From Chiloscyllium plagiosum (Eukaryota), in assembly GCF_004010195.1 (NCBI RefSeq), contig NC_057749.1:15371726-15435725 (forward strand): DNA of 64,000 bases, given 5' to 3'. This document shows, piece by piece, positions 3,020 through 57,430 of this stretch. Under the pieces are notes generated by a model. The model made no database searches. It saw only the letters and a list, made by a program, of their open reading frames with translations, and had not been told where the DNA came from. Position numbers and translations under genes: made by a program. How positions within the stretch are numbered: the first letter of the stretch is position 1; the number at the start of each line of letters is the position of its first letter.

Positions 3020-3230
3020 AAAAGAAACCCGCAGATGCTGAAGATCTGAAACAAGATCAGAAATTGATGGATAAATTCAGCAGCAGGTCTAGCAGCATCT
3101 GTCGAGAGAAAGCAGAGTTCAGGAAGGGTCCCTGAAGAAGAGTCGCTGGACTTGCAACATTAACTCTGATTTTTCTCCACAGACGGTGCCAGACCTGCCG
3201 AGCTTCTCCAGCAATGTCTGATTTTGTTTC
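3020..3230. mobile_element. Fold-back Penelope-derived cassette (family C) with degenerate hammerhead core
   Basis: Inverted arms gcagatgctg...gcaggtctagcagcatct / gccagacctgccgagc around cctgaagaag...gcaacattaactctg. Confidence 0.6.
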
Positions 3231-3705
3231 CCGCTGAGATCTTGCTCAGAATGGGTGTCGCAGCTGGGTCTAATCCTGCTCTCTTTCCCCTAGACAACAT
3301 GTATGCAATTCTCCAACTGCAATACAGGCTGATTCCCCGAACCCTGAGCCCTGAGAGATCAGAGCTGGCTTTTACAAGTTCTGAGAAACATTAACTTTGA
3401 TTTCTCTCCACAGCTGCTGCCAGACCTGCTGAACTTTTCCAGCAATTTCTGATTTTGTGCCTTTACAATGCCCTCTGTCCACCTAGCAGACGCCAGTTCA
3501 CTCAGGGCGAGGACCTGAGATGGAATCTTATAATCTGCAGGGTTCAATGATGCACCAGTCACACAATCAGCCAGCCACTAAAATGATCACTTCAAACTGG
3601 TGGTGACACAACAGTTAAAGAAGCTGGTTAGTAGCTCACTCGAAAGTTCCACACAGCTTCAGCCAACTCGGTCATTGATCTGATGGTCACTGAGGCATCA
3701 CTTAC

Positions 3706-3788
3706 TTGGATAAGAGTTTGACTGTTTCCTGAGTGGCTCTTGTCTTTTTGTGCTGTGACCCATACAGAAAGGTCTGAATTCCCAGGCA
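3706..3788 (-). CDS. TTC23L: Coding exon (CLGIQTFLYGSQHKKTRATQETVKLLS-K/N); not in the ORF track
   Basis: Acceptor ctctctgtttggcag, donor AA|gtaagt; 83 nt, phase 0 to 2; resembles the TTC23 CLQIQTLLYGPQ exon. Confidence 0.9.
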
Positions 3789-4184
3789 CTGCCAAACAGA
3801 GAGATTAAAGTGTTTAATTAGAATTCTACATTCAGCAACTACCAGTTATACTGGGTCAGCATATTTACCCCTCGCAACTGAACAGCAAAATGCAAATTGC
3901 AGCAAAATGGTGTGCTGAACTCTTTGCTTTACAGCTTCTTCGTATGCACCCCCACCCACCCCCACCCCACCCCACCCCACCCGGAGGTGCTACCTCTTCT
4001 GGGGTGTGTTTTACCATCACCAGCATTGACCCATAAACAAAGGAACAAGTTCAAATTTTGTGTCTTTATTGCATTGTTCACAGGCCTAAAGACTCCTCGT
4101 TGCTCTCTCCACAGCAACACCTCAAGAGTCAACTAGCCAACCAAATCAGGACCTTTTTCTCCTATAGTATAGACTGTAGCGAAC

Positions 4185-4265
4185 ATTTGAAATTTGGCAT
4201 TCTTGCATTTGTCCTGATGAAAGCAGAATGAAAAGCTTCAACACCATCTCTCATTTCAACAATAT
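4185..4265 (+). mobile_element. Family D element end with hammerhead-like core (gtc-CTGATGA...GAAAAGCTTC-aac)
   Basis: Homologous to 11535-11615 (+) and to 39338-39400 and 42289-42351 (-). Confidence 0.55.
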
Positions 4266-4659
4266 GACTGCGGTTGCCATTCTACCCAGATGGCTCAGCA
4301 TAGATGGAGAGCCGGGGGAAAATCTGAAGAAGAGTTATATCACACTTGAAATGTTTCTCTCTCCACAGATGCTGCCAGACCTGCTGAGTTTCTCCAGCAT
4401 TCTCTGTTTGTTTCAGATTTCCAGCATCTGCGGTCTTTTGCTTTTATTCGACCATTTATGAACTGTTGGCATGGCCTTAGTGAAAGAAGGGGATTTCTAA
4501 ACCAAATGATATTTCTAAGATCAATTGCTTGAACACAGCTTTACAAAACTGGCTTACATAAACCACATTTCTATTTATTATTAATTATTCCCCCTCAAAG
4601 TTTCCTGTCCATTTTTTTTGGCTTAAAGAGCAATGTGTTTTTATCCAGTACCTTTATTT

Positions 4660-9997: not shown

Positions 9998-11275
9998 AAA
10001 TTCACCTGGACCACCTCGGACACTCCCCTCCCCTTCCTAGACCTCTCCATCTCCATTAACGGTGACTGACTCAACACGGACATTTAGCACAAACCCGCTG
10101 ACTCCCATAGCTACCTGGACTACACCTCCTGCCAACCTGCCTCCAGTAAAAATGCTATCCCTTATTCCCAATTCCTCTGCCTCCACTGCATCTGCTCCCA
10201 GGAGGACCAATTCAACTCGAATCATACTCGATGGCCTTCTTCTTCAGAACCACAATTTCCTCTTCCATGTAGTCGATGAAGCCCTCCAGCGCATCTCATC
10301 CACTTCCAGCACCTCAGCCCTTGAACCCCACCCCTCCAATCACAACAAGTACAGAACCTCCCCTGGTTCTCACCTTCCACACCACCAACCTCCGTACACA
10401 TCGCATCATCTCCGCCATTTTCACCACCCACAAACAGACCCCACTACCAGAGATATATTTCCCTTCCCATTGCTATCCATGTTCCAGACAGACCATTCCC
10501 TCCGCAACTCTCTTGTCAGGTCCATGCCCCCACCAACCCACTCTCCCTTCCTAACATCTTCCTCTGCCACCACAGGAATTGCAAAACCTGTGCCCACACT
10601 CCTCCCTTATCTCCGTCCAAGGTTCCAAAGGAGCCTTCCACATCCATCAGAGATTTACCTGCATTTCTACACATGTCATCTATTGTATCCATTGCTCCCA
10701 ATGTGGTCTCCTCTATATTGGGGAGACAGGAACTCTACATGTGGAACACTTCAGAGAACATCTCTGGGACACATGCACAAAACAACCCCACCGCGCTGTG
10801 GCTGAACACTTCAACTCCCCCTCCCACACCCCCAATGACATGCAGGTCCTGGGCCTCCTCAATTGCCAAACCCTTGCCACCCAACGCCTGGAAGAAGAAT
10901 GCCTCATCTTCCGCCTTGGGACTCTCCAACCACATGGGATCAATGTGGATTTCACTAGTTTCCTCATTTCCCCTCCCCCACCTTATTCCAACTTGGCACC
11001 ACCCTCTTGACCTGTCCTACCTGTCTATCTTCCTTCCCACTATCCGCTCCACCCACCTCTCCGACCTATCACCTTCACCCCCCCCACCTTCACCCACCCA
11101 TTGCATTCCCATCTACCTACTCCCCAGCCCCAGCCCCACCCGCTCCCATTTATCTCTGAGTCCTCTTGGCCCACAAGCCTCATTCCTGATGAAGGGCTTA
11201 TGCTAGAAACGTCGATTCTCCTGTCCCTCGGATGTTGCCTGACCGGCTGTGCTTTTCCAGCACCACACTCTTGAC
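9998..11275 (+). mobile_element. Penelope-like retroelement (family A): RT thumb remnant, GIY-YIG endonuclease, 3' region and hammerhead-bearing terminus
   Basis: ORF 10579-11010 FTCISTHVIYCIHCSQCGLLYIGETG...FREH...VAEHFN...RLEEECLIFRLGTLQPHGIN is a PLE GIY-YIG domain. Terminal cctgatgaagggc...gaaacgtcga at 11185-11215. Confidence 0.9.
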
Positions 11276-11744
11276 TGTAAATCACCTGAGACAATGTTTT
11301 TCACTCTATCTTGATACACGTGAAAGTAGTAAATTAAATCAAATCTCCTCCAATGGCTCTAAGTGTTAAGATTTTGATTCTCTATAAACAAAAGGGGCAT
11401 GTTCAAACCTTGCACCGTTTCTGAATTTCCCGGGAGTTTGGGGAGCCTACAGTTCCCTCTGCTTTCGCCCTGGCAATGCCTCGATTTATCAGAGCCAACT
11501 TGCCAACCAATCATATCCTAACTTGTTGTGATTGTTTGAAGTTTGGCATTCTTGCATTTGTCCTGATATATGCAAAAAGAAAGGTTTCAGCCAGGTGTTC
11601 CTTTTCAGCAATATACAACATGTAGATGATAAGCTCAGCCCTGCTGGAGAAAGTGAAGTGAATCTTGGGATGAGACGTGATGTCCTCCAGTTTGATCTGG
11701 ATGTCATGGCCATGCTCACTGTCTAAGAATCATAAAATAAAATC

Positions 11745-13104: not shown

Positions 13105-13244
13105 CTAAAAGATCCAAACAACCTTGCAATTAGTGGATATAACAACATTTGTGAAGATATTGTCACATATAAATAAGAGCACTATAAATAGTTTTACTGT
13201 TGTGATCACTATACAAATGATCTCAATACAAACAGAGATTGTCC

Positions 13245-13610
13245 AAAGTTAAACATCACACATCACCAGGTTATAGTCCAACAGGTTTAACTGGAAGCAC
13301 TAGCTTTCGAAGCACTGCTCCTTCATCAGGTGGCTGTCATACCCCTGATGAAGGAGCAGCGCTCCGATAATTAGTGCTTCCAATTAAACCTGTTGGACTA
13401 TAACCTGGTGTTGAAGGGATGAAGGGCTTTTCCCGAAACGTCGATTTTCCTGCTCCTTGGATGCTGCCTGACCTGCTGTGCTTTTCCAGCACCATTCTGA
13501 TCTAAACTCTGGTTTCCATCATCTGCAGTCCTCACGTTTGCCTATAACCTGGTGTTGTGTGATTTTTAACTTTGTACACCCCAGTTCAACACCAGCATCT
13601 CCAAATCATG
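13245..13610. mobile_element. Fold-back Penelope cassette (family B) with a nested family A fragment (13414-13541)
   Basis: Inverted arms carry two hammerhead cores. The nested insert is flanked by a 16-bp TSD ctataacctggtgttg (13398-13413 / 13542-13557). Confidence 0.8.
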
Positions 13611-13934
13611 ATATTGTACAGAAATGTTTATGCAACAAAATATCACAGAAGGCAAGTGTGGAAAAGGAGAATAACAAGGATGAATTGAGAGTTTTGGAAT
13701 GTAGCTAAAGGTAGGTTTGGAATAATGTGAAATAAATGTGACGGGGAGGGTGGTAGTAAGGTAGATGGGGATGAGAGTGGACATTCTGGGGTTGAGAGTT
13801 ATGGTGACTTAAGACCAGGGCACCAAGTGAGCAGGGGAAAGGAAAATCTGAAACTCCTTCAAGATTGGATTTCCTGTACAATCACTTTTAAATTTTCACT
13901 TCACTGAAACTATGATGAATGGTAAAAAGTAACT

Positions 13935-14600
13935 GAAAGGACTGCGGATGCTGTAAATCAGGAACAAAAATAGAAGTTGCTGGAAAAGCTCAGCAGGTCT
14001 GACAGTATGTGTGCAGAGAAATCAGAGTTAACGTTTCGGGTCGAGTGACCCTTCTTCAGAACTGATGGTAGCGAGGAAAATGTGGTTTATAAGCAGAAGA
14101 TAGGGTTGGGGTGAGGGAGAGGAGTAAATGATAGGTAGGAATAGAGCACACAGAGAGAGAAGAACAGTTGGACAGACAAAGGAGTGGCTAATGATTTAGC
14201 TAGGAAGGTGAATAGCTATTAACGAGGACTGTTGGTGGCTAACAATGGGTTGTGCGCAATAGCAGACTATATGATAACAAGGTCCTGATGAAGGGCTTTT
14301 GCCCAAAACGTCAATTTTCCTGCTCCTCGGATGTTGTCTGACCTGCTGTGCTTCTTCAGCACCACTCTGATCTAAACTCTGGGTTCCACCATCTGCAGTC
14401 CTCACTTTTGCCTATATGTCAGTGGGGGTAGGAGTAAGGTTATGGGAGAGCTCAAGCCCTAAAGCTTTTCAACTCAATATTGAGTCCAGAAGGCTGCAAG
14501 GTCCCCAAGTGGAAAATGAGATGCTGTTCTTCCAGCTTGCGCTGAGCTTTTCTGGAGCACTGCAGCAACCCTGAGGCAGACATGTTGCCCAGAGAACAGC
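13935..14600 (-). mobile_element. Penelope-like element (family C): GIY-YIG C-terminus plus hammerhead terminus, with a nested family A fragment (14281-14412)
   Basis: Minus strand 14470-14550 reads AQRKLEEQHLIFHLGTLQPSGLNIE; intact hammerhead at 14021-14066. Confidence 0.8.
14021..14066 (-). ncRNA. Putative minimal type-I hammerhead ribozyme (family C)
   Basis: aucaguu-CUGAAGA-a-GGGUC acuc GACCC-GAAA-CGUU-aacucugau: stem I AGUU/AACU, 5-bp stem II, ACGU palindrome, GUU cleavage triplet. Confidence 0.7.
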
Positions 14601-15874: not shown

Positions 15875-16590
15875 TAGAGTCATAGAGAGGTACAGCATGG
15901 AAACAGACCCTTCAGTCCAACTCGACCAAGCCGACCAGATATCCCAACCCAATCTAGTCCTATTTGCCAGCATTTGGCCCATATCCCTCTAACCCTTCCT
16001 ATAGATATACCCATTCAGATGTCTTTTAAATGTTGAAATTGTACCAGCCTCCACCACTTCCTCTGGCAGCTCATTCCACACACGTACCACCCTCTGTGTG
16101 GAAAAAGTTGCCCCTTAGGCCGTTTTTAAATCTTTCCCCTCTCACATTAAACCTATGCCTTCTAGTTGTGGTCTCCTCCACCCTGGGGAAAAAAACTTGT
16201 CTATTTATCTAATCCATGTCCCTCATGATTTTACAAACCTCTAAAAGGTCACCCCTCAGCCTTCAATGCTCCAGGGAAAATAGCTCCAGCCTATTCAGCC
16301 TCTCCCTACAGCTTAAACCCTCCAACCCTGGCAACATCCTTGTAAATGTTTTCTGAATCCTTTCAAGTTTCACAACACCCTTCCCATAGCAGGGAGACGA
16401 GAGTTGCACGCAGTACTCCAAAAGTAGCCTCAATAATGTCATATACAGCTGCAACATGACCTCTCAATTCTTGAAGAAGGGCTTATGCCCGAAACGTCGA
16501 TTCTCCTGTTCCCTGGATGCTGCCTGACCTGCTGCGCTTTTCCAGCAACACATTTTCAGCTCTCAATTCCTATACTCAATGCTCTTATAA
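15875..16590 (-). mobile_element. CR1/HER1 LINE 3' end with a nested family A Penelope fragment (16471-16559)
   Basis: ORF2 C-terminus on the minus strand; insert flanked by a 10-bp TSD ctctcaattc (16461-16470 / 16560-16569). Confidence 0.88.
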
Positions 16591-24892: not shown

Positions 24893-25007
24893 TTTATTTG
24901 AATTACAAGCTTTTGGAGCATTGTTGAGAGTGTGCTGCTGGAAAAGCACAGCAGGTCAGCATCCGAGGAGCAGGAGAATCGACGTTTCAGGCATAAGCCC
25001 TTCATCA

Positions 25008-26345: not shown

Positions 26346-26386
26346 ATTGCCCTGGACTATAATCTGGTATCGTGTAGCTTTTGATC

Positions 26387-27015: not shown

Positions 27016-27029
27016 TAGAAAAAAGAGGA

Positions 27030-31779: not shown

Positions 31780-32052
31780 ATCTTCCTTTCCACCTATCGA
31801 CTCCACCCTCCTCTCTGACCTATCACCTCCACCCCTACCCCCATTCACCTATTGTACTGTATGCTACTTCCCCCCCCACCTCTCATTTATCTCTCCACTC
31901 TGCAGGCTTCTTGCCTCTATTTCTGATGAAGGGCTTTTGCCTGAAACATCAATTTCCTGCTCCTCGGATGCTGCCTGAAATGCTGTGCTCTTCCAGCACC
32001 ACTCTAAACCAGACTCGGGTTTCCAGCATCTGCAGTCCTTGTTTTTACCACC
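31780..32052 (+). mobile_element. Penelope family A 3' terminus with hammerhead core at about 31923-31952
   Basis: Matches 11030-11275. Confidence 0.8.
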
Positions 32053-33809
32053 CTGACCTTGACCCAACCAGGTGCAGAGTACATTGAAAATTGTGTGATG
32101 AGGCCAAAGCATAACAAGGGTTAGACTTACAAATGCTACTGCAAAGAGCTGACTTGCGGGTGCCCTCAAAACGAGGGGAATTGTATCGGCGCAGATAAGA
32201 AGTACTTGCCAAACAGACTATTGCAGAGGTCTTGTAATTAGGGTGTGGGGAATAGTTTGCATGAACTTACTGCAGTATGTCACTGTAAGATATCGCAGAA
32301 TAGATAAACAGAAGGTACTGACCATTACTTGCGATTTCAGGAGTTCGAGTAAAAAAAAGTATAAAGAGTCTGAAAACAGCTGTTGTTGCGGAGTTCTCAA
32401 CTGGCAAACATGCAATCGACACACACGGGAAAAAGCCAGATATTCTAAAAAATTGCGGACTCGTTCTGTATTTCTTAGGAACCCAACACAAGTGTCCAGC
32501 ATTTGAAGCCAAAAACATTTCAGGAAGGAGTTAGATACTGTTCTTAAGGTTAAAGGGCTTCAAGGGTATGGGGAGAAAGCTGGAACAAGTTACTGAGTTG
32601 GATGATCAGCCATGGTCATAGTGAATGGTGGAGCACGCTCACTGGGCTAAATAGCCTACTCCTGCTCAATGTATCCAGACCGTCGCTAAAAACTACATAC
32701 TTCCACCTCTGTAACATGGAACTGACTCTGCCGCTGCTTCAGGACAACTGTTATGCAAACTCTCATTCATGGTTTTACTTCTAGGCTTGGTGATTCTAAC
32801 ACTGACCTGAAAGGCCCCATGTTCGACCCAATGTACACCTGAGATCAGCAAAACCTGTTACCCGCTCCAGCCTGCAAACCTCCGAGATCTTTGATTTTAT
32901 CTGATTATGTGAAACTTGACCCCAACCCATTGCAGTCATTCCCCCCGTTCATGTGAGGATTCATTTCCAGAGAACCCTCGCAAAACTCCGCGAGTGCGGA
33001 GCTCATTAAAAATAGGTTAGAAGTATCACAGACAAGTGGTTTTTGCCTGCGGAGTTTGAGTTTTATTACTTGATTTTCGGTGAATTTGTGATTCGGTGCC
33101 TACTTCATGATGGAAAGGGACGGAGTGGGCAAGTACTTCCATTCTGAGAGGCAGATTGGTAACTTTAACACCCATGATGGACACGACCTGCCTGTGTGCA
33201 CGGGTGGTCACTGAGCCTTTGAGCCACTGACCTCACCATCACACTGACCCCCATGGCCTCCACCTCCCTCCCACCCAATGGTCACTGCCTTACCCACCTC
33301 TCCCAATGCTGCCCATAAGCCTGGAGAAAGTGAGGTCTGCAGATGCTGGAGATCAAAGTTGAAACTTTATTGCTGGAACAGCACAGCAGGTCAGGCTCCA
33401 CCTCCCTCCCACCCAATGGTCACTGCCTTACCCACCTCTCCCAATGCCGCCCATAAGCCTCCCCATATCGACTGCATCGTCCTTCGCATGGCTCATTATT
33501 TCAGCTTCTTTTCCGAATGCACAGGTCAGTATTGGCCGTGAACCACCGCTGCTGATTAACTCCCAATGGGTCAGTGTGCTTGGAGCTGAACAGCGGGACC
33601 GGGTAACTCAGCTTTCCGCGGAGACAGCAGACGTATCCAAAGGGCGTGCACTTTCTCCGCTCAGCTCGTCTGGCCAAAGAGTGCGAGCACCTCACCCAAA
33701 CTAGCTCTATGGTCCCAAAAGTAAACCCACCCTCATCTCCAGGAAGCCCAACCCTCTGAGACGCAACGTTCTCTGCTTTGTGATCAAACTCCACCCGGTT
33801 TGTAAAATT

Positions 33810-34110: not shown

Positions 34111-34371
34111 CATCCTAGAACTCTGTGGGCACGTTTGCCTTTATTGGTCAGTGCATTGAGTATAGGAGTTGGGATGTCATGCAGATGTACAGGACATTGG
34201 TGAGGCCACTTTTGGAATACTGCATTCAATTCTAGTCTCCCTGCTATAGGAAAAATGTTGTTAAACTTGAAAGGGTTCAGAAAAGATTTACAATGTTGTT
34301 GCCAAGGTTGGAAATTTGAGCTATAGGGAGAGGCTGAATAGGCTGGGGCTGTTTTCCCTGGTGTGGAGGGA

Positions 34372-35395
34372 CCAGTGTTGAAATGGGATGAACAAAGTCA
34401 GAAGTCACACAACACCAGGTTATAGTCCAACAGGTTTACTTGAAATCACCAGACAAGAGTGTTCCCTCCCAATCGGGGAACACTTCAGTGGTCAAGGACA
34501 TTCAGCCTCTGATCTTTGGGTGAGCATCCACCAAGGTGGCCTTTGAAATAGACAACAACACAGAACAGCTGAGCAGAAACTGAGAGCCAAGTTCCGTACT
34601 CAGGAAGCCAACCTCAACCATGATCTTGGATTCATATCACGTTACATGTTACTTCATCATACTGTCCTACATCTGTAAAATCTTCCTTACTCTCCTGCTT
34701 TGACACCATCACCTTGATAACTTGCTATGATCTCTCTACCTTAATTAGTTTGTACAATTTTGGATTACTTGTTACTTTGGTTAGACTCTTGGCTCAAGAC
34801 TCTTACATCTATTATGTGATTCCAGGCATTTGGTTTGTCTCTAGCACCATCTTGTTTTAAATTTATTGTAATTATCACTCTGCCTTAATTAATCAGATAA
34901 AAGCAAATTACTGTGGATGCTGGAATCTGAAACCAAAAGAGAAAATGCTGGAAAATCTCAGGTCTGGCAGGTCAAAGCTTTGACAAAGGGTCAGTTAGAC
35001 TCAAAACGTCAGCTCTTTTCTCTCCTTACAGATGCTGCCAGACCTGCTGAGATTTTCCAGCATTTTCTCTTTTGGTTAATTAATCAGATCATTGTTCATC
35101 CTTTCACTTGCTATTCAGCTGCTGACTTTACTCACACCATTTGACACTTGTGATCACCTGCAAAGCCTTGTTATTCAGCTTGTTGACAGTTCACTCACAC
35201 CACTTGTACTATCCTTTAACACTCTTAATTACCTGGAATTATCTTGCACTGATCCCTCCAGCTATAAAAGTTCTGTCCCTGTTTGCTTCCCTCCACTTCA
35301 CCTGATCAAAGAGCAACACCCCAAAAGTTTGAGATTTCAAATAAATCTATTGGACTATGAACTGGTATTGTGTGACTTCTGACTTCTGACTTCTG
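34372..35395 (+). mobile_element. Penelope-like element (family B): inverted terminal arm, GIY-YIG C-terminus, 3' region and degenerate hammerhead; contains a fold-back cassette at 34900-35075
   Basis: 34450-34650 reads RQECSLPIGEHFSGQGHSASDL...AEQKLRAKFRT...LNHDLGFISRY; the terminal arms are inverted. Confidence 0.78.
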
Positions 35396-35397
35396 AT

Positions 35398-37970: not shown

Positions 37971-38092
37971 ACCCAAGAAGCCTCCCTGAACAATACCCCA
38001 AGAAGCCCCCTGAACAATACCCCAAGAAGCCCCCTTAATAATACCCCAAGAAGCTCTTGAACAATACCCCAAGAAGCCCCCTGAAGCCCCCA
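37971..38092. repeat. 24-bp minisatellite (ccccaagaagccccctgaacaata), about 5 copies
   Basis: Direct reading; a longer array is at 40799-41044. Confidence 0.9.
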
Positions 38093-40798: not shown

Positions 40799-41044
40799 TG
40801 AACAATACCCCAAGAAGCCCCCTGAACAATACCCCAAGAAGCCTCCTGAACAATACCCCAAGTTACCCCCTGAACAATACCCCAAGAAGCCTCCTGAACA
40901 ATACCCCAAGAAGTCCCCATAATAATACCCCACGAAGCCCCTGAATAATACAAGAAGCTCCCTGAACAATACCCCAAGCTGTCCCCTTAATAATACCCCA
41001 AGAAGCTCTTGAACAATACCCCAAGAAGCCCCCTGAAGCCCCCA
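40799..41044. repeat. 24-bp minisatellite, at least 10 copies, running into the gap
   Basis: Direct reading. Confidence 0.9.
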
Positions 41045-42902: not shown

Positions 42903-44345
42903 GAACATAGAACATTACAGTGCAGTACAGGCCCTTCAGCCCTTGATGTTCTGCTGACCTGCGAAACCAATCTAAACCCCATCGAACCTACACTATTCCA
43001 TTATCATCCATATGTTTATCCAATGACCATTTAAGTGGGTGGCATGGTGGCTCAGTGGTTAGCAATGTTGCCTCACAGCACCAAGGTCCCAGGTTCGATT
43101 CCAGCCTCAGGCAACTGTCTGTATGGAGTTTGCACAGTCTCCCCGTGTCTGCGTGAGTTCCCTCTGGGTGCTCCGGTTTCCTCCCACAGTCTAAAGATGT
43201 GCAGGTCAGGTGAATTGGCTATGCTAAATTGCCCATGCTAAATTGCCCATAGTCAGAGGGAAATGGGTCTGGGTGGGTTACTCTTCGGAGGGTCAGTGTT
43301 TCCACTCTGTAGGGAATCTAATCTAATCTAAAAAAGTGCCCTTATTGTTGGCGCGTCCACTACTGTTGCAGACAGGGTATTCCACGGCCTTACTACTCTC
43401 TGAGTAAGGAACCTACCTCTGACATCTGTTCCATATCTATCACTCCTCAAATTAAAGTTATGTCCTCTCATGCTAGCCATCACCATCCAAGGAAAAAGGC
43501 TCTTGCTGTCCACCCTATCTAATCCCCTGATCATCTTGTATGCCTCTATTAAGTCACTTCTTAACCTTCTTCTCTCTAACGAAAACAGCCTCAAGCTCCT
43601 CAGCCTTTTCTCATAAGACCTTCATTCCATTCCAGGCAACATCCGAGTAAATCTTCTCTGAACCCTTTCCAAAGCTTCCACGTCCTTCCTATAATGTGGC
43701 GACCAGAAATGTACACAATACTCCAAGTGTGGCCGCACCTGAGCTATATACAGCTGCAATATGACCTCATGACTCCGAAACTCAATCCCTCCACCAATAA
43801 AAACTAACATGTCGTACACCTTCTTAACAACCCTATTAACCTGGGTGGCAACTTTCAGGGATCTATGCACATGGACATAGAGATGTCTCTGCTCATCCAA
43901 CACTACCAAGAATCTTACCATTAGCCCAGTACTCTTTTTTCCTGTTATTCCTTCCAAAGTGAATCACCTCGCACTTTTCCGCTTTAAACTCCATTTGTCA
44001 CCTCTCAGCCCAACTCTGCAGCTTATCTATGTCCCTCTGTAAACTGCAACATCCTTCCACACTGTCCACAACTGCACCAACTTTAGTGTCATCCACAAAT
44101 TTACAAACAGCCCTCATCCAAGTCATTTATAAAAATGACAAACAGCAGTGACCCCAAACCAGATCCTTGTGTTACACCACTAGTAACTGAACTCCAGGAT
44201 GAACATTTCCCATCAACCACCACCCTCTGTCTTCTTTCAGTTCGCCAATTTCGATCCAAACCACTAAGTCACCCTCAATCCCATGCCCCTGTATTTTCTG
44301 CAATAACCTATCATGGGGTACTTTATCAAAAGCTTTACTGAACTT
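42903..44345 (-). mobile_element. CR1 LINE 3' portion interrupted by an HE1 SINE (43039-43335, +)
   Basis: [35 protein letters not shown]; the SINE is flanked by a short aagtg duplication. Confidence 0.88.
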
Positions 44346-46257
44346 CAGCCACTATGGAAGATTGGAAGCATTCAAGGTATTGTTGGTGAAACCTTAGAGG
44401 CAAATACACATCACCATTTACCACTAGTATTCTAACATTACACTAAATGTAATTTCCACATGTATAAATGTTTGTAGCCCTGGTTACCAGGAAACCAACA
44501 TGACATGCATTGATTTGTAATACAAGGATAGGTGGCCAGCCTGCAGGAATTAGACACAGCTCCCTCTCACTGCTAGCTATGAGAAAATAAACCTTTTTGC
44601 ATCATATGAAATCTGAAAGAGAGAAATTCTGGTTTAAAGAACTGGAGCACCGTTTCAAGATTAATCTCGAGAACAGAACATAAGGGTTAAGTTTAAACTG
44701 ACAAAAGGCACATTTACTGATGTCAGGACGATTACCAGGATATAAAGAATGGTCAACAATCACAACAACTTCAGATCAGTGAAGATTTCAAGCAGTAATT
44801 CGAAGCATATGCTATTTTATGAGAAAGAGAATGCAATGGTCAAAGGACTCTTTTCAGGACTGCTTTCTTACGGTAATTAATTGAAGGCAACTGCGTTTTG
44901 ATTTAGGGTATTATCCAGACTGGAAAGTTTGAGTTATAAGGAGAGGCTGGGTAGGACAGGACGGTTTTTCCCCTACAGTGTAGGAGGCTGAGAGGTGACA
45001 TTATAGAGGTTTATAAAATCATGAGGGGCTTGGATAAGGTGAACACTGAGAAATGGTTGGCGGCGGTTCAACCCGAGGGTTACCAAGCCTTAGATGAGGG
45101 AATAAGATTGGTAACCTCAGCTGGTGAGGGAAGTGAGCCCACCTTATCCCTTACCTGAAAGCAAAGGTGTAACAAAGGGACGGGGCTATCCCAGCAAGAC
45201 GTAGGCTGGTGATAGATGCCCCCCATTTCAAATGGGGGCAGGGCAGGGGGAGGGGAGACCAAGATAGAGACATCATTGAGTTTGCCAACATTGTAAGGGC
45301 CACAGCAGAATTGTGATTCTCAAACCAGACTCCACGAAATCTCTCTCTCTCTCTCCAAAACTAAAGAGGGTTCTCCACAACCTGTGACCAATCAAGGCTG
45401 GATTTCCCCCTCAGGCTGACAGCCATAGGTAAGTGCAATCAGTACATCAGTAGGATGCGCCATGCGACATTGAGTCTCAGGAAGACCCAGCCACAGATCA
45501 GCATAGCAAGAGGAAAACTCAAACACACAACAGAAACAGAAGAAGACATTGATGGAGAACGTGTTAGAGAAGCAAATGTGTCACTAAAGCAAGTACTAAA
45601 TCCAAAATGTAACAGTATATGACAAGTTGATACTTTCTTTTCCTGTCCTGATGAGTTAATCCATGAGTTGGCGATTCTATGAATACTACATAGCACCTGG
45701 GATTGTGCCTAAATAGCCAACTGTCGTGTGCTGACATAGATAGCGAACACTGACAGAGGCAATCAACTACAGGAGGCATCACAGATGCACTGTGCCCTTG
45801 AGCAGCTGTGCACTCTTCAACAAGAATCACTGAATAATGACTTGGTCTTAAGAAGCCTGGCTAGACAGTTCTTCCTCTTAGTATCCTCCGATGTTGAGTT
45901 CAAATTGCAGTATCCAGCCCCACCACGTACAATCAGGTAACTCAGCAGAGACCAGGGATCAAATGGGCTCCTCAGCAGAGTTGCACACAGAGTCTACTGG
46001 AAATGACTAAGACAGTAGTTGTAAGAGGCTCACATGTGAAACTTGGCTTCTTGTATTGGCACCAGCAAAAGTGCTCACTTCTTGGTACAGAATCATCACA
46101 CTGTATAGAAGGAGGTCATTTGGTCCATTCTGCCTGTTTGTAAAGAGCAGTCTAATATTATAATCTGGTAAGGTCTGGCAAGGTTGCCTGGAACCAAATG
46201 GAACTGTGGATGAGATGGTGATTATGTGTTAATTAAGGGATAAATGGGTGAGGACTT

Positions 46258-46722
46258 AAGGGTTCAGAAAAGATTTACAAGGATGTTGCCAGAGTTGGAG
46301 GGTTTGAGCTATAGGGAGAGGCTGAATAGGCTGGGGCTGTTTTCCCTGCAGTGTCGGAGGCTGAGGGGTGACCTTAAAGAAGTTTATAAAATCATGAGGG
46401 GTATGGATAGGGTGAATAGTGAAGGTCTTTTCCCCAGGATAGGGGAGTCCAAACCTAGAGGGCATAGGTTTAAGGTATGTGGGGAAAGAGTTAACAAGGG
46501 GCTACTTTTTCATGCAGAGGAATGAACTGCCAGAGAAAGTGGTGGAGGCTGGTACAATTACAGCATTTAAAAGGCATCTGGATGGGCAAATGAATAGGAA
46601 GAGTTTAGAGAGGGATTGGGCCAAATGCTGGCAAATGGGTCTAGGTCAGTATAAGATATCTGGTCAGCATGGATGAGTTGGACCAAAAAGTCTGTTTCCA
46701 TGCTGTACATCTCTATGACTTG
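46258..46722 (+). mobile_element. CR1/HER1 LINE 3' end
   Basis: RVQKRFTRMLPELEGLSYRERLNRLGLFSL...; tail. Confidence 0.9.
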
Positions 46723-47699
46723 ACTGGATGAACCTACAGGGGGAACACGTATCACTGGTGTTAAGAGTTCTGCAATGTGCAAGATGAAGTAAAATTCTTG
46801 ACTAGGAAAGTACATTCCCAGACTCTTTGGAGGCCAGTATTAAACTCTGGTGTTAATTTGCTCCAATCCCTCCTGACTCATGCCCCAAATGCAAATATTT
46901 CAAGTACTTTTCCAATTTCCCTTTGAAAGCTACCATTTGATCTGCTTCCAACAACATCTGAGGCAGAACATTACAGATCACAACAAAAACACACTCTGCA
47001 AACAAAAAGTTTCTCCTCATCTGCCCTCTGTTTTTTTAACCAGTTATTTTAAATCTGGGTTCTTCAGTTACTGATTATACTCAGTCCCTCTCTATCTATT
47101 CCAACTCTACTCGAGTATCCAAACTCTTCCATATTTTGAGCAATTTTCTTAAATGTTAATCTTCTCCTGACAATGTTTTAAAATGAGGTCATATTCTCAA
47201 AGTGTACAACTTGATGCATTTTAGAATTGAACTGTGACCCTTGTTCCCCCTCTGTTGGTTAATTTAAAAATAACTTTTATTTTTGTAACACTGAGAGTCT
47301 CTCTGCTGTTCAGAAAGCAGGACTAAAATTAAAGTGAGGTTACTGGCATGCAGATAAACACTTCAGAGCAATCAATTTGGACCTGAGTGTACACCAATCT
47401 ATCACTGTGTCTTATGTTTATGGTGCTATCTGTTACTGTATTGAATATCCCAACACCTATTCCAAAGGTCACTTACTGTTTGGTCACTCTTGAACCCAAC
47501 AAAACAAAGTTGCTGAATCAGGAACTATAGTTTATTTGTAAAGGCTGCAGAGAAGATTAGAAAACAGTATTTAACAAAATATTTCTAAAGAAGCAGTCCT
47601 TTAAGTCCCACCCAACTCCTCCCTATCCCTCCCTAAGGTGTTGGTTTCAGTTAGTTCATTGTTTAAAAACGAGCAACAGCTCAAGGCTCCTGTGAGCCC

Positions 47700-47828
47700 T
47701 TCCTGATGAAGGGCTTATGTCCGAAACGTCGATTCTCCTGCTCCTTGGATGCTGCCTGACCTGCTGTGCTTTTCCAGCACTGCACTTCTGACTCTGATCT
47801 GCAGCATCTGCAGTCCTCACTTTCTCCG
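47700..47828 (+). mobile_element. Family A Penelope terminal fragment with intact hammerhead core (47703-47730)
   Basis: CUGAUGA-a-GGGC uuau GUCC-GAAA-CGUC. Confidence 0.8.
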
Positions 47829-48448
47829 GTGAGGGGACGACTGGATTGGGCAGCAGGCTATTTGACTTTGGAAGACATTGCAGCTGAGAAGAGGCAAGCA
47901 TGGAATCGACAATTTGGCTGACACCACAGTTATGAGACACTAAAGTTTGCCTGAATATCCTGGATTCCTGCTCCAATCTAAACAATTGTGAGTACCGGCT
48001 ATGATATTCGACTCGTACACCATAAAAACACACGATCAAAGCTCTCTGTGGGCAATATGAATTCAGCTAAAAAAAAATTAAAAATATACAAATGAAAATC
48101 CATCTGAGTGTTGTAAAAAAAAACACAAGTAAATCACTCATGAAGGAAACCTGCCATTCTTACTGGGTCCAGACTACACTTGACTCCATGCTATATATTA
48201 ACCAGGTAAGTTATACAATCGTGCCCATGTCCCAGGAATTTCTTTCCTCTTTCATGGGATGTAGGAATCCCTGGCAAGACTGGTATTTGTTGTTCATCCC
48301 TAAATGACCTGTATGTCTTCCTCGGCCATTTCAGAGTTATATGTACGACAGATAGGATAAGAACAACACATTTCCCTTTCTCTCGGCACCCTTGTTAACC
48401 AGATGGATTTTTATAAGAATTGATGATAGTTTCAAGGTCACCATTGTT

Positions 48449-48583
48449 AGGAATTCCTGATGAAGAGCTTCTGCTCGAAACGTCGACTCTCCTGCTCCTT
48501 GATGGCTGCCTGATGGGCTGCGCTTTTCCAGCCCCACACATTTTGATTCTGATCTCCACCCATCTGCAGTCTTCACTTTCTCC
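48449..48583 (+). mobile_element. Family A Penelope terminal fragment with intact hammerhead core (48457-48484)
   Basis: CUGAUGA-a-GAGC uucu GCUC-GAAA-CGUC; compensatory stem II change relative to other copies. Confidence 0.8.
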
Positions 48584-49130
48584 CCACTGAAACAGTAGTC
48601 CAGTGACAATACTGAATACATAAAGTAAAGGTTCACCAAGACCAGGAGAAGCACTCCCACTGCTATCACAACTGATTCAGTTCAGCCTGCAGCACAGAGA
48701 GGTGAGCATTATTTGAAGCTATGATCTGTACAACATTGTACTCCAGTAATGTCATTACGATACTTAATTTTAAAATATGCAATGGTGGAGTCTGGTCTTC
48801 GTTTGTGGGAGCTTGCTGTGCACAGATTGGCGGCTGCATCTCCCACATTACAGCTATGATGACATTTCAAGATTATTTTATTGCCTTTAAAGTGCTTTGG
48901 GAAATCCCGTGGTCATGAAAGGCCCTGTATAAATGCAAGCCTTTTTCATATTCTAAAGCTCATTAGCAGGGCTCCTTCATGCTCTAACGTCCTTCCATTG
49001 TGAGTTGTGCATCAGAATCCTTTCGGAGTGTGGCTAGCCTTTGAAACGGCTATTTGAATGCATTTGATTTTGCAAAAATATACATATTAAGACACATGCA
49101 CAAATGGAATTTCCAAATCTTAGCGCTTAC

Positions 49131-49256
49131 CTTCCCAAGGTCAAAGTAATTTCAGCATTTATTCGTCTAATCTCTTCCAGTGGCACTTCCTCGGCCTGTC
49201 GAAGCTCGTCTACAACCTTCTCCGACTTGAGCAGGTTTTGCTCTGCCTCTTTCAGA
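49131..49256 (-). CDS. TTC23L: Coding exon (N-LKEAEQNLLKSEKVVDELRQ...EITLTLG-R)
   Basis: AC acceptor after the U12 branch site; donor AG|gtaagc; 126 nt, phase 2 to 2. Confidence 0.9.
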
Positions 49257-49522
49257 GTGAGCAAAGTTAAGGGAAAGCAGACTATGTGTAGAGGACATTC
49301 TCTGTTGAAGAAAACAAGAAAAAAGGGCATAGGTAGGCCCGAGTGTCTTTCAAGCTTGCCCTGCCATTCTGTAAGACCTTAGCCAATCTTTTAGATCCTT
49401 TCTCCACCTCTGTAGCCCTTTGGCACCTGAGGATGTGCTCCTAACTATTTCATTCTTTCACAGGGCTTGACATCACTGACTGGGTTAGTGTTTATTTCCT
49501 GTTCCAAATTGCCCTTAAGAAG

Positions 49523-49814
49523 TTAAAAATCACACAACACCAGGTTCTAGCCAAACAGTGTTATTTGGAAGAACTAGCTTTCGGAGTGCTGCTCCTTCAT
49601 CAGGTGGTTGTGGAGAATAAGATTGTAAGACACAGAATTTATAGCAAACTTTGCTATAAATTCTGTGTCTTACAATTGTGTACTCCACAACCACCTGATG
49701 AAGGAGCAGTGCTCCGAAAGCTAGTGCTTCCAAATAAACCTGTTGGACTATAACCTGATGTTGTGTGATTTTTAACTTTGTACACCCCGCTCCAACACCA
49801 GTGTCTCCAAATCA
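49523..49814. mobile_element. Family B fold-back Penelope cassette with two opposed hammerhead cores and a 13-bp TSD
   Basis: Inverted arms 49521-49648 / 49650-49777; TSD tgcccttaagaag at 49510-49522 / 49815-49827. Confidence 0.88.
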
Positions 49815-49959
49815 TGCCCTTAAGAAGGTGGGTGAATCGGATTGCTAACTAATTTAAATTGCCTTTTTTTATTCATTTGTAGAACGTAGGCACCACTGGC
49901 TGGCCTGTATTTACAGGCCGACCCCTAGCTGCCCTTGAGCAGGTGGTGGTGATAGTAAT

Positions 49960-51346: not shown

Positions 51347-51543
51347 GAGGAGAAAGTGAGGTCTGCAGATGCTGGAGATCAAAGTTGAAACTTTATTGCT
51401 GGAACAGCACAGCAGGTCAGGCAGCATCCAGGGAACAGGAGATTCGACGTTTCGGGCACAAGGGCCTGTGCCCGAAACGTCGAATCTCCTGTTCCCTGGA
51501 TGCTGCCTGACCTGCTGTGCTGTTCCAGCAATAAAGTTTCAAC
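51347..51543. mobile_element. Family A fold-back cassette: perfect 78-bp inverted repeat and 14-bp TSD
   Basis: Arms 51383-51460 / 51467-51544; TSD tctacattaagcac at 51333-51346 / 51544-51557. Confidence 0.9.
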
Positions 51544-53756: not shown

Positions 53757-54092
53757 GAATCATAGAAGCCATACAGTATTGAAAGAAGCCATTCGGCCCA
53801 TCAAGTCTGCACCAACCCTCCAAACAGCATCCCACCCAGAACCACTCCCTACCTTAACCCCGCATTTACCATGTTTAATCCATTTAGCCTATACATCCCA
53901 GGACATTGTGGATAATTTAGCAAGGCCAATCCACCTAACCTACACATCTTTGGACTGTGGGAGGAAATCCACGCAGACACGGGGAGTATGTGCAAACTCT
54001 GTACAGACAGACAGTCAGCCAATGCTGGAATCAAACCAGAGTCCCTGGTGGCCTGAGGTAGCAGTGCTAACCACTGAGCCACTGTACCCACC
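53757..54092 (-). mobile_element. HE1-type V-SINE
   Basis: Head, V-domain and tail on the minus strand. Confidence 0.85.
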
Positions 54093-54772
54093 TTATTAGA
54101 ACTGGTTTTATTTTCAACTGAGCACATTTAAGATTGGGGATCGATTCACATTGGGGAATTGTAGCACAGGTGCCATGTAGCACTTCAACCCTATACAGGC
54201 TTTCAAAGTCTGAGTGGAACACTGACAGCAACATGACTCTTCCCCTCACCCCTAGATTCATGGACCCACAGAAAACTCCATCAGGAATAAAAGGCAGAAA
54301 TTGCTGGAGAAACTCAGCAGCTCTGGCAGCATCTGTGGAGAGACAGGAGAGTTAGTGTTTTGAGTCCAGTGACCTTTCTTCAGAGTTGAAATAACTTTGA
54401 TTCCCAGCAGAACCCATTTCCTCATACATGGATAAAACACAGAATTTTAGGGACTGTTGAGTGAGTGGGAAACAGGGAGCTGTTGAGAAGTTGAGCTGTC
54501 AATACTGCGCTGTCTTTTGAACCATTTCCACACACTGGTGAATTGGCATTAAATACCAAAATGGCTTTCGTGGAAATTGGATACATTATGGGCTTGTGCA
54601 GGATAAGCAATGGGGATTTGAAAGAAAAACGCGCATTTATACAGTGGGTGGAATCTTTGTTTTGTCAGAGGCAAAGGGCTTCCTAAAAGGTTCCAACAAG
54701 TTCAAGAAGAGCTTCTTCCCTGTTGTTATTAGTCTTCTGAATGGACCTCTCAAATATAAAATCTAATCTACA

Positions 54773-56390
54773 CAGAACATAGAACAGTACAGGGCCTTCA
54801 GCCCTCAATGTTGTGCTGACCTTTCATCCTACTCTAAGATCAAACTAACCTAAATACCTTTTGTTTTACTATCATCCATGTGTCTATCCAAGAGTCGTTT
54901 AAATGTCCCTAATGTATCTGACTCTACTACCGCTGCTGGCAGTGCATTCTACACACCCACCACTCTCTGTGTTAAAAAACCTACCTCTGACATCTCTGCT
55001 AAACCTTCCTCCAATCACCTTAAAATTGTGCCCCTTTGCGATAGCCATTTCCACCATGGGAAAAGTCTCTGGCTGTCCACTCTATCAATGCCTCTCATCA
55101 TCTTGTACACCTCTATCATGTCACTTTTCATCCTTCTTCGCTCCATAAGACATGCCCTCCAATCCAGGCAGCATTCTGCTAAGTCTCCTCTGCACCCTCT
55201 CTAAAGTTTCCACATCCTTCATATAATGAGGCGACCAGAAGTGAACACAATATTCCAAGTGTGGTCTAACCAGGGCTTTAGAGAGCTGAGTATGACCTTG
55301 TGGTTCTTAAACTCAATCCCCCTGCTAATGAAAGCCAATACACCGTATGCCATCTTAGCAACCCTATCAACTTGGGTGGCAACTTTGAGGGATCTACGTA
55401 CATGGACCCCAAGGTCCCTCTCTTCTTAAACACTGCCAAGAATCCTGCCTTTAACCCTGTAATCTGCATTCAAATTCCACCTTCCAAAATGAACCACTTC
55501 ACACTTTTCCAGGTTGAACTCCATCTGCCACTTCAGCCCGGTTCTGCATCCTGTCAATGTCCCGTTGCAATCTACAACTGCCCTCCACACTATCCTCAAC
55601 TCCACCAACCTTCATGTCATCAGCAAACTTACTAACACACCCTTCCACTTCTTCATCCAAGTCATTTATAAAAATCACAAAGAGCAGAGGTCCCAGACAG
55701 ATCCTTGCAAAACACTACTGGTCACCGATCTCCAGGCTGAATACTTTCCATCTACTACCACCATCAGTCTTCTATGGGCCAGCCAATTCAGTATCCAGGC
55801 AGTCAAATTTCCCTGTATCCCATACCTCCTTACTTTCTGATTAAGCCTACCATTGGGAACCTTACCAAATGCCTTGCTAAAATCCATATACACCACATCG
55901 ATTGCTCTACCTTCATCAATGTGTTTTGTCACATCCTCAAAAGAATTCAATAAGGTTTCTGAGGCATGGCCTACCCCTCACAAAGCCATGCTGACTATCT
56001 CTAATCAAACTATGGTTTTCCAAATAACCATAAATCCTGTCTTTGAGAATCCTCTCCAATAATTTGTCCACTACCGACATAAGACTGACTGGTCTGCAAT
56101 TCCCAGGTTTATCCCTACTCCCTTTCTTGAACAAGGGAATAACATTTTCTGCCCTCTAAACATCTGGTACTACTCTAGTGGACAGTGAGGACACAAACAT
56201 CATCACTAAGGGCACAGCAATCTCTTCCCTCGCTTCCTGTAACAACCTTGGGTATATCCTGCCTGGCCCAGGGTACTTATCTATTCACATGTTTTTCAAA
56301 ATTTCCAACACATCCTCCTTCTGAACATCAATCTGTTTGAGTATTTCAGCCTGTTTCACACTGCCCTCACAAAAGACAAGGTCCCTCTCA
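54773..56390 (-). mobile_element. Decayed CR1 LINE (RT to 3' tail)
   Basis: FKKGSRDKPGNCRPVSL, VYMDFSKAFGKVPNGRL and KWQMEFNLEKCEVVHFGR in shifted frames. Confidence 0.9.
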
Positions 56391-57324
56391 GTAGATCTTG
56401 CTTTTTGTGCACGTTCGTTGCAGCTGTAACCTTGTGTTCCTCGCCCTGTTGTATCACCCTATGACCTCGCTGGGTATTGCTTATCATTTTGCCTCGAGCT
56501 CAAGATAAATAGATTCCCCAACCAACCTGTTATTATACCCCAGGGCAGCTGGGACTTGAACTCGGGTCGTCCTGATGCAGAGGTAGGGACACTACCACTG
56601 CCCGACAAGAGCCCCTCAACTGGAGCTGAGAACAATTGCAGCCGAGATAATGAGCCCTTGAGTGCACAATATTTGGCCTGAAATCGGTAGCAGGGCCAAG
56701 TGATTAACCCTGGGCCTTTCTACTCAGACAGTGGGACGTGGGCATCATTAGCTTAGCCAGTTCTTGTTGCATATTCTTAGTGGAAGGTTAAAGCAAGGAA
56801 ATAAGGTTTAAATTGTACCCAAACCTCAGTTGGTCACTGATTACAACGCTACTTGTAACAATGTTATTTGGCTACCGTGCACGTAGGAAGCTCATTAAGA
56901 CAGGGCATTGAACAATGATGCTGGGTTTGAGGGGCTCATATGCGACATGTGTTTGGGTTTTATGGCTTCTCTCTCTGCTCTGTGCTCTATGTTATATTTA
57001 GGATTAGCAACTTGAAATATCGAGAAAGAAGCAAGGCTAAAGGAGGATAAACATTATGAAAAGATTTTTAACTGGAGATGGATTACAGTATATCAATAAA
57101 ATGCGAACAGGCTGAGCTGCAGCAGGAGAATAACAGAGGGGAAGTTAAAGAAGTGCTTTCACACGGATTTATTAGAGCACAAAATGCTTCTCCAAACTGT
57201 CCAATTAAGTTGCCTTTCCGCAGAAGATTCTGCCCAGTAAAAAATCGAAAGCGGATGCTGGAAGTCTTAGATTTTATTGTCACGCGTACTCAAGTATGAG
57301 AGTACAGAGAAAACTGTGAGATCA

Positions 57325-57430
57325 GAATCAAAAACAGCAACTGCTGGAAAAGCTCAGCAGCTCTGGCAGTGCCTGTGGAGAGAAATCAGAGTTAACGCTT
57401 TGGGTCCACAGACCCTTCTTCAGAACTAAA
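57325..57430 (-). mobile_element. Family C Penelope terminus with degenerate hammerhead
   Basis: Matches 13960-14066; a similar copy lies at 54285-54388. Confidence 0.7.

Follow-up and report, generated by a model that had tools for sequence, protein, structure and literature searches.

Hammerhead-bearing repeats in a shark-like genome are probably 3′-terminal modules of Penelope-like elements

What kind of element has scattered short hammerhead-like motifs over a small stretch of a cartilaginous-fish-like genome, and are the units that carry them elements in their own right? The stretch concerned, called the window below, comprises 64,000 nucleotides of Chiloscyllium plagiosum (contig NC_057749.1, positions 15,371,726 to 15,435,725). 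A preliminary description of it had recognized four dispersed families (A to D) of minimal hammerhead ribozymes (min-HHRs) linked to Penelope-like elements (PLEs), and had likened the short units to retrozymes and to short interspersed nuclear elements (SINEs). From our analysis, families A, B and C are, with a probability of roughly 85%, 3′-terminal modules (~128-166 nt and more) of endonuclease-positive PLEs, each with a min-HHR motif. They represent a known kind of element, extraordinarily abundant in this host, and not a new system.

The motifs occur in the window far more often than by chance. The loose pattern CTGAWGA-N8-30-GAAA was found 19 times, with 3.75 expected (standard deviation 2.37, maximum 11), and none of 100 dinucleotide shuffles reached 19. 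A strict descriptor was also applied, in which CUGANGA is followed by 0-1 unpaired nt, a stem II of 4-8 bp opening with G..C, a loop of 3-7 nt, GAAA, a self-pairing dinucleotide, U and an H17 that is not G. Six matches were obtained in the window (13329-, 14059-, 47703+, 48457+, 49603- and 49695+), none in the reversed window and none in 50 Markov shuffles, and 273 kb of other loci of the same genome gave 42 matches and, when reversed, 0. The A, B and C sites listed in the preliminary description, 17 out of 17, sit in real repeat copies, and self-BLAST added 12 further fragments, which makes 29 fragments in the window, of which 11 are A-like, 8 B-like and 10 C-like. Every core and pairing feature is kept in only six of these. 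Most copies are decayed by point changes, especially at CpG, as exemplified by the broken helix II at 11186, G12>A at 14285, C3>U at 16471, ACGU>ACAU at 31923 and GAAA>GAUA at 13344; the copies at 3132, 4323, 35298, 54350 and 57385 are decayed as well. On sequence grounds, families A, B and C are genuine repeat families with a minimal type-I hammerhead motif.

Natural copies read UUC CUGAUGA A GGGC-N4-GCCC GAA ACGU C in family A, CAC CUGAUGA A GGAGC-N3-GCUCC GAA AGCU A in family B and AGUU CUGA(A/G)GA A GGGUC-N4-GACCC GAA ACGU U in family C. Conservation was scored on 57 A, 53 B and 32 C ribozyme-spanning copies, each projected onto a natural reference copy; the sample is skewed to better copies, because the 87 loci outside the window (numbered with an L below) were picked as top matches. 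No change is seen in the CUGANGA core heptamer of 50/57 A, 46/53 B and 29/32 C copies or in the GAA of 48/57, 42/53 and 21/32, and where the core departs, it does so by single substitutions of the kind that decay produces. An unpaired A follows position 9 in 56/57 A, 51/53 B and 31/32 C copies. Position 17 is other than G in all 57 A, 52/53 B and 31/32 C copies, and family A has C or U there, family B has A and family C has U. Stem II opens with G-C or G-U in 55/57, 50/53 and 30/32 copies and with A-U in one more B copy; each stem II pair is formed in 85-100% of copies, and the A15.1-U16.1 pair in 54/57, 51/53 and 29/32. All criteria jointly are intact in 29/57 A, 25/53 B and 4/32 C copies. 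Stem III is, as had been proposed, reduced to a palindrome, ACGU in A and C and AGCU in B, of which the inner dinucleotide (CG or GC, respectively) is eroded to CA/TG by CpG decay.

The proposal of a constant core with stems that vary from family to family is borne out by compensatory differences among the reference pairs. Stem II is built of G-C, G-C, G-C(U) and C-G in family A, of G-C, G-C, A-U, G-C and C-G in family B, and of G-C, G-C, G-C, U-A and C-G in family C. In stem I the pairs are C-G and U-A in A, C-G, A-U and C-G in B (3 bp), and U-A, U-A, G-C and A-U in C, where three more pairs follow these 4 bp beyond a 2-nt bulge. Family B therefore differs from C and A by double changes in two stem II pairs (3 and 4), in three stem I pairs and in the palindrome, and the stem II hairpin is predicted in 3/3 natural copies folded. 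Covariation of the stems, which had been expected across copies, holds between families only: a single double change was found among 57 A copies. Side by side with this, A subfamilies seen among matches on contig 1 differ in loop II (UUAU, UUUU, CUGU, UCAU or UAAU) and in N7 (U, A or G), and CUGAAGA forms outnumber the CUGAUGA of the window's intact copies.

The connection to PLEs was followed with P0001, a PLE-like protein of the whale shark (Rhincodon typus), as tblastn query. For family A it is strong. At 9998..10989 (+) lies a 5′-truncated, frameshifted PLE coding remnant with a reverse transcriptase (RT) C-terminus, a CX4CxxC linker and a GIY-YIG endonuclease, its last open piece spanning 10555-11010. 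It matches P0001 aa 129-459 with E 1.7e-52, and its translation includes VIYCIHCSQCGLLYIGETG besides the linker. The family A unit at 11183..11276 (+) follows ~170 nt 3′ of this open reading frame (ORF), its hammerhead at 11186 having the helix II broken to GGGC/GCUA. Relatives of the window PLE protein carry RVT_1 and GIY-YIG, the nearest named ones being uncharacterised proteins of Rhincodon typus and Chiloscyllium punctatum. The linker is visible in P0001, P0002 and the window remnant, which points to the Neptune/Nematis type and not to Poseidon by the motif definition in PMC8557442 (this source and the others below are cited for the parts of them covered).

The link of family C is good. 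An intact C unit at 13931..14066 (-; CUGAAGA from 14059, GGGUC/GACCC, ACGU, U17) forms the 3′ end of a minus-strand PLE remnant, whose GIY-YIG C-terminus at 14443..14595 (-) was detected by tblastn with E 1.3e-11 and shares 51% identity over 43 aa with the A-linked endonuclease (E 4e-14). A family A unit (14283..14408, +, G12>A) is inserted in the 3′ untranslated region (UTR) of this C-type element. For family B the link within the window is indirect only. A decayed stretch at 34444..34652 (+), read as the endonuclease C-terminus of a B-type PLE, has no direct tblastn match to P0001, and its only direct protein match is weak (28% over 29 aa, E 7e-5). It is 70-78% identical at the DNA level to stretches in six family B loci (L035, L039, L047, L049, L052, L055), and in four of them (L035, L039, L047, L049) P0001 identifies the matching stretch as endonuclease C-terminus; its distance to the unit is ~560-750 nt in L035, L047 and L049, and L039 has it inverted. 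An inverted partial B copy (34364..34452, -) lies on the 5′ side of this B-type remnant, and a decayed B unit with the core CUGAUCA (35299..35385, +) ends it. The attachment of each family to a GIY-YIG remnant, which had been claimed from the window, therefore stands for A and C and, by way of related loci only, for B.

Elsewhere in the genome the same arrangement recurs. P0001 matches precede A units in the window and in 9 of 29 other A-targeted loci, precede C units in the window, L068 and L080, and lie beside B units in, for example, L049 (aa 67-455) and L055. ORF remnant and unit share the strand for A, B and C in the window and in L003, L013, L023, L027, L030, L049 and L068, and the hammerhead lies ~95-135 nt from the 3′ end of the element. 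The one long copy inspected, L091 (G000:C28:8650600-8654900), has a reported 973-codon open frame with an A unit 3′ of it (3712-3830); no unit is visible in the 653 bases upstream of the ORF, and 2447 of its 4301 bases are N. Motif anatomy and this continuity with RT and GIY-YIG sequence uphold the assignment to minimal type-I hammerheads of the PLE kind. The possibility that the ORF begins within the unit, as it does in Anolis, was considered and dropped: an ATG after the ribozyme is open to the unit end in A and stops after 16 codons in C.

Are the families independent of each other? B-type RT-endonuclease sequences are ~28-34% identical to the shark protein and A-type ones ~44-70%; B is thus far more divergent, which indicates at least two deep PLE lineages. 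A and C share two blocks downstream of the ribozyme and are therefore sister families rather than independent, whereas B is unrelated in sequence outside the core. Of the several independent ribozyme-bearing lineages that had been supposed, the deep separation of B from A stands and that of A from C does not.

Three families remain of the four, since family D is no hammerhead. Its spacer from CUGAUGA to GAAA is 9 nt long (AAGCAGAAU or GUGCACAUU) and unable to form a stem II, and its fold shows no hairpin (z = +1.1). The core is missing in one of the four window copies, that at 11563 reading CTGATAT, and the AAGCUU palindrome is present in one of the four. With no stem II and with core and palindrome inconsistent, D was rejected as part of the ribozyme system; it is a separate, older and unrelated repeat, with 1085 first-look candidates in the genome search at 78-92% identity. 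Its copies lie at 4150..4260 (+; the site listed at 4214), 11535-11589 (+), 39338-39399 (-; listed at 39345) and 42289-42350 (-). The last two have identical core stretches, and arrays of 24-bp period with the same unit flank the N gap 40323-40798 on both sides (37972-38085 and 40799-41037). The identical D cores around the gap suggest a local duplication or an assembly problem.

Several observations weigh against reading A, B and C as PLE modules with a functional ribozyme. The Rfam hammerhead covariance models gave 0 matches at gathering threshold in the whole window, and 0 at E<=10 both there and in 13200-14400, 1.2 kb with five copies. This failure would be expected if the models need a stem III hairpin, whose absence here is the likely reason, but it counts as a failed test all the same. 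Stem I of family A is very short, with two Watson-Crick pairs, then U.U, then A-U, and in the predicted minimum-free-energy fold of the A monomer a part of the core, UGAUG, pairs with CGUCG, an inactive fold. Within a family the core is conserved no better than its flanks, the weakest columns being CpG sites, so that the expected excess of core conservation is not seen at this level. Such a pattern is to be expected from neutral decay of dead copies and has no bearing on function; as within-family conservation is uninformative, the case for selection rests on the comparison of lineages, and these are three only, two of them related. On the protein side, Pfam GIY-YIG scores weakly on the window's own 151-aa piece (E 0.047, 14.4 bits, cut-off 22.6), and no full-length copy with two direct terminal repeats was seen, the one long copy inspected being L091, mostly N. 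From the literature, low in-vitro activity of min-HHRs (PMC4209133) and in-vitro insertion of an Anolis PLE that is unchanged by mutants of the hammerhead core (PMC11167929) have to be added.

Part of this evidence would fit a motif that is conserved but not self-cleaving and only looks like a hammerhead core: it might serve structurally or in protein binding at the PLE 3′ end, or be a passenger parasitising PLEs. The missing Rfam match, the weak A stem I with its alternative monomer fold, the low published activity and the silent Anolis mutants all agree with it, as do the finding that no RNA-seq reads end at the cut site in Anolis (PMC11167929), the statement that hammerhead-free PLE clades proliferate well, and the authors' idea that hammerheads may 'simply parasitize PLEs' (PMC8557442). 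Under this explanation it would be hard to see why the catalytic positions, G10.1-C11.1, A15.1-U16.1 and a non-G position 17 are kept in three families with compensated stems, or why the dimer palindrome is kept and yet switches from CG to GC. The hammerhead of the Anolis element PAc and other PLE hammerheads also cleave in vitro, where a C3G/G8C rescue works (PMC11167929). We consider a non-cleaving motif quite improbable.

The form of the insertions bears on how the PLE modules arose. Family A units are 128 nt long, and their 3′ end is fixed (2534 first-look candidates). All 40 scored genome matches run near end-to-end. One is the window copy itself (100% identity); the other 39, at 90-94% identity, start within query positions 1-4 and stop within 122-131. 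The family C unit measures ~136 nt (3885 first-look candidates). For family B (909 first-look candidates) 40/40 scored matches span the whole 166-nt query, and upstream of the ribozyme its copies reach 130 nt or further.

Target-site duplications of 12 and 16 bp were found in the window. The 16-bp one, CTATAACCTGGTGTTG (13398-13413 and 13542-13557), bounds a 128-bp A unit at 13414..13541 (+) whose 5′ end is without CUGA. This unit splits the right arm (13344..13413, +, resuming at 13542-13610, GAAA>GAUA) of a head-to-head B pair; the left arm is a partial copy at 13240..13337 (-) with an intact hammerhead from 13329 (GGAGC/GCUUC, one G.U). The 12-bp duplication, GCCCTTAAGAAG (49511-49522 and 49816-49827), bounds a B insertion at 49523..49815, in which an inverted partial copy (49523-49647, -) precedes a full one (49651-49815, +), with hammerheads from 49603 (-) and 49695 (+) and AAUAAA at 49733-49738. 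The last ~38 nt occur only in the full (plus) copy and are absent from the inverted one. By exact match, duplications of 9-16 bp were detected in 7 of 60 A/C loci (L010, L015, L021, L026, L062, L086, L089), a low number because copies are ~8-11% diverged.

Of 30 A copies inspected by eye, 11 abut an inverted partial copy, 9 run into a PLE 3′ UTR and 10 have unrelated flank. Intact B motifs lying within 2 kb of each other are, among the first 100 listed on contig 1, paired nine times as (-,+), twice as (+,-) and never on the same strand. Inverted arms of family B break off after ~116-138 of the 166 nt, the 'tail' signature of PLEs. Head-to-tail arrays were found neither in the window nor in the 87 loci outside it, which removes the likeness to retrozymes; in the B locus L052 a second same-strand copy lies ~340 nt away. 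ARAGORN finds no tRNA-like gene in the window with its 29 unit fragments, and 7SL or 5S heads gave no Rfam match in the general window scan, no dedicated search having been made.

Could the solo units be solo terminal repeats, left by recombination between the direct repeats of full-length PLEs in the manner of solo long terminal repeats (LTRs)? Their defined ends and flanking target-site duplications would agree with such an origin. Yet a repeat of 128 bp is poorly suited to recombining tens of thousands of times, and ragged 5′ ends with filler bases, together with the abutting inverted partial copies, point to reverse transcription. Moreover, element-internal sequence follows none of the 30 best A copies, and 5′ repeats of full-length copies are rare. 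Recombination is in our estimate a very improbable source.

The 5′ ends of the A copies are less easily explained. In an unselected sample of 148 A-like matches in 337 kb, with flanks compared all-against-all, 72 reach unit position <=6, and 21 of these 72 abut unique flank at the 5′ edge of the ribozyme, ~6x the per-nucleotide truncation rate inside the unit. A copies tend to begin within 0-5 nt of this edge, C copies likewise begin just upstream of stem I by eye, and in at least six head-to-head pairs (L002, L007, L010, L011, L014, L029) the inverted arm ends at the same 5′ boundary. Random truncation would not yield so sharp an edge. It could stem from a discrete RNA 5′ end, from an RT that is programmed to stop or to switch template there, or from an RT start at the 5′-proximal copy of the entry site on a full-length RNA.

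The sharp edge, the raggedness of only 0-5 nt and the near full length of all scored A matches are what would be expected if the short units, especially the 128-nt A unit, were a discrete non-autonomous SINE-like element that reaches from the ribozyme 5′ edge to the RT entry site and is copied in trans by PLE proteins. An Anolis PLE protein accepts short terminal-repeat/ORF-junction RNA as template in vitro (PMC11167929). Against a discrete unit stands the continuous series with longer 5′-truncated PLEs, seen in the 9/30 copies that run into PLE 3′ UTR, as well as the result that neither a tRNA-like gene nor head-to-tail arrays were found in the sequences searched. The inverted 5′ partial copy and the one-sided tail are published PLE features, B reaches too far upstream of its ribozyme for the sharp edge to be general, and top-scoring matches are biased to full length. 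We regard a discrete SINE-like unit as possible but doubtful. The preliminary proposal of units inserted alone like a SINE is thus right in that short units with target-site duplications are the commonest form, and is opposed by their continuity with truncated PLEs. Less likely still, and put forward only tentatively, the 128-nt A module would be a free-standing retroposon, the smallest RNA copied by the PLE machinery, which would begin exactly at the 5′ edge of the hammerhead and end at the RT entry site, with the hammerhead serving mainly as 5′ boundary or recognition structure. If true, this would be a PLE-driven 'ribozyme SINE' at >= ~10^5 intact copies in a shark-like genome.

Taking A, B and C as terminal modules of PLEs, we propose from published PLE biology that copies are made by target-primed reverse transcription that would start near the RNA 3′ end. 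Copying would usually end or switch template soon after the terminal module, so that tail-only copies dominate. With stem III consisting of A-U and the palindrome, cleavage would be possible only when two copies pair (ACGU/ACGU or AGCU/AGCU), and it is predicted to occur after GUC in A, CUA in B and GUU in C. Dimeric PLE hammerheads are reportedly the subject of work by Lünse, Weinberg and Breaker in 2017. Head-to-head pairs cannot supply the dimer in one transcript, because one arm is antisense; this arm would rather sequester the motif in a long hairpin. Nearly all genomic copies would be passive relics.

Of two poly(A) single-cell RNA runs labelled as the same species and aligned to 47600-49900 at 90% likeness, one gave 0 reads and the other 4494, all on repeat units and on both strands. 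No pile of read ends was observed at the predicted cleavage sites or at the unit 5′ edge, a poly(A) library being blind to 5′-OH and to short non-polyadenylated RNA. The reads likewise show no common start or end, which speaks against a discrete unit as far as a poly(A) single-cell library, unsuited to this point, can show. Beside this, family B has an AAUAAA 7 nt after its predicted cleavage site, and 399 and 625 B-unit reads, mostly in sense orientation, enter non-templated poly(A) after 49750 and 49753. Since the reads run into non-templated poly(A), B tails act as polyadenylation sites, ~63 nt before the 3′ end of the DNA copy, and may truncate host transcripts by way of this used signal.

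The search of the genome (3.56 Gb, 101,977 contigs) gave 87,506 exact intact motifs for A, 17,087 for B and 355 for C, a total of >=104,948 for the three sequence types, and 0 for the reversed patterns; the A pattern takes in many loop II and N7 variants. The endonuclease remnant yielded 137,495 first-look candidates, which are not copy numbers. Within the window, packed with retroposon debris, PLE tail fragments occur about every 2 kb.

Further family A copies in the window comprise an A-like unit of a subfamily sharing only the first 80 nt (16468..16547, +, C3>U) and another one limited to these 80 nt (24936..25007, -), in which the first core base is G. The unit at 31920..32039 (+) is continuous upstream with PLE 3′ UTR and shows ACGU>ACAU by CpG decay, and a fragment at 33323..33396 (-) covers unit positions 55-128, the ribozyme part being absent. 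The 128-nt unit at 47700..47827 (+) has unique flank on both sides and the intact motif UUC CUGAUGA A GGGC-UUAU-GUCC GAA ACGU C. Also intact is the hammerhead of the unit at 48454..48583 (+), with a compensated stem II pair (GAGC/GCUC). Both arms of the A head-to-head pair 51349-51462 (-) and 51460-51530 (+) end inside stem II and have no CUGANGA. Family C is represented by a head-to-head pair at 3031-3119 (-) and 3132-3228 (+) with decayed core (GAAA>GCAA), a fragment of unit positions 30-107 (3385..3462, +), a strongly decayed copy (4324..4439, +, with BLAST covering 4358-4439), a second head-to-head pair at 34910-34970 (-) and 34986-35077 (+), and two copies at 54280..54384 (-; core decayed) and 57321..57427 (-; GAAA>AAAG).

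This second C pair folds into a long hairpin with a sub-threshold mir-216-like Rfam match. More generally, the head-to-head tail pairs at 34945-35063, 49581-49717 and 13271-13402 fold into long hairpins, and such pairs give sub-threshold Rfam matches to mir-216, mir-67, MIR946 and mir-2005. In annotation, where inverted tail pairs thus score as miRNA precursors, these are likely false miRNA calls.

The remaining repeats of the window are of other kinds. A G+C-rich 27-bp minisatellite at 57869-59449 (58.6 copies, 85% match) is open in several frames and gives rise to a spurious 537-aa ORF. The 3′ coding tail of a long interspersed nuclear element (LINE; …RLGLFSLERRRLRGDLIEVYKIMRG…FTQRVV..WN.LP…), which we take to be CR1/L2-like, occurs in many copies (2370-2813, 20000-20296, 28431-28862, 43328-43963 (-), 46244-46525, 59785-60099 (-), 61009-61586), one pair being a 191-bp tandem duplication. 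The translated motif VAQWLALLP(H/Q)(S/A)(A/T)RD(P/S)G(S/L)IP recurs in stop-to-stop ORFs at 24817-25089 (-), 34002-34397 (-) and 53849-54127 (-) and looks, from sequence, like another abundant short repeat, possibly a tRNA-derived SINE, although ARAGORN calls no tRNA in the window. N gaps are present at 25267-25988 and 40323-40798.

How do these families compare with known hammerhead-bearing retroelements? The Sm-alpha repeat of Schistosoma, for which PMC4209133 cites Ferbeyre et al. 1998, is reportedly a short, dispersed and very abundant hammerhead retroposon in a genome that also has PLEs. It is said to carry a canonical hammerhead and a tRNA-like promoter region, neither of which was seen in the families here.

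Metazoan retrozymes without LTRs (PMC7229834; Li, Clavereau & Pollet 2026 preprint) resemble the present units in being non-coding, hammerhead-bearing and PLE-associated. They differ in forming ~170-400-nt head-to-tail tandems with canonical loop-loop hammerheads and circular RNAs (PMC7229834), whereas the motifs here are minimal and occur without arrays and in inverted pairs. The 2026 preprint derives vertebrate retrozymes from PLE terminal repeats and, in the part covered, reports dispersed monomers and one sampled species of Chondrichthyes.

The Poseidon element PAc of Anolis carolinensis (PMC11167929) shares the hammerhead ~100-130 nt upstream of the end of inserted copies and the 'tail' signature, and in vitro a short RNA that covers this module is enough of a template. 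In contrast, its ORF starts within the ribozyme region, whereas the reading frame of family C is interrupted. Published signatures of PLEs include pseudo-LTRs in partial tandem, an adjacent inverted 5′-truncated copy, a tail of 30-40 bp on one side and hammerheads close to the 3′ end (PMC8557442). The window and the loci match these in their inverted partial copies, the one-sided ~38-bp tail and the target-site duplications (PMC8557442, PMC4209133).

Closest are the min-HHRs of PLE terminal repeats (PMC4209133). The type-I topology, the CUGANGA/GAAA core, G10.1-C11.1, the unpaired nucleotide before stem II, the short stem I and a palindromic stem III that implies dimers are all shared, and so are several consensus families per genome, dispersed single motifs and nearby opposite-strand pairs. 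Most min-HHRs were described there as single dispersed motifs, thousands in number and 'probably related to truncated PLEs', with opposite-strand pairs 100-700 bp apart. Differences lie in stem II, 4-5 bp here against 7-8 bp in the Schistosoma families, and in the host, a cartilaginous-fish-like one being absent from the parts of that paper covered. The min-HHR counts given are ~4,000 for coelacanth and ~9,000 for Xenopus (PMC4209133), so that the count obtained here is ~10x the largest in the covered parts of Cervera & de la Peña 2014 (PMC4209133). For canonical retrozymes, up to 120,000 copies were reported in axolotl (PMC7229834), with a genome of ~28 Gb according to the 2026 preprint, and a PLE expansion has been reported in whale-shark introns (bioRxiv 10.1101/443036). 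Taken together, the known association of min-HHRs with PLEs is extended to a large cartilaginous-fish-like genome at an extreme scale, and this genome, with its many subfamilies, loop variants and ages, offers a natural library for the role of min-HHRs.

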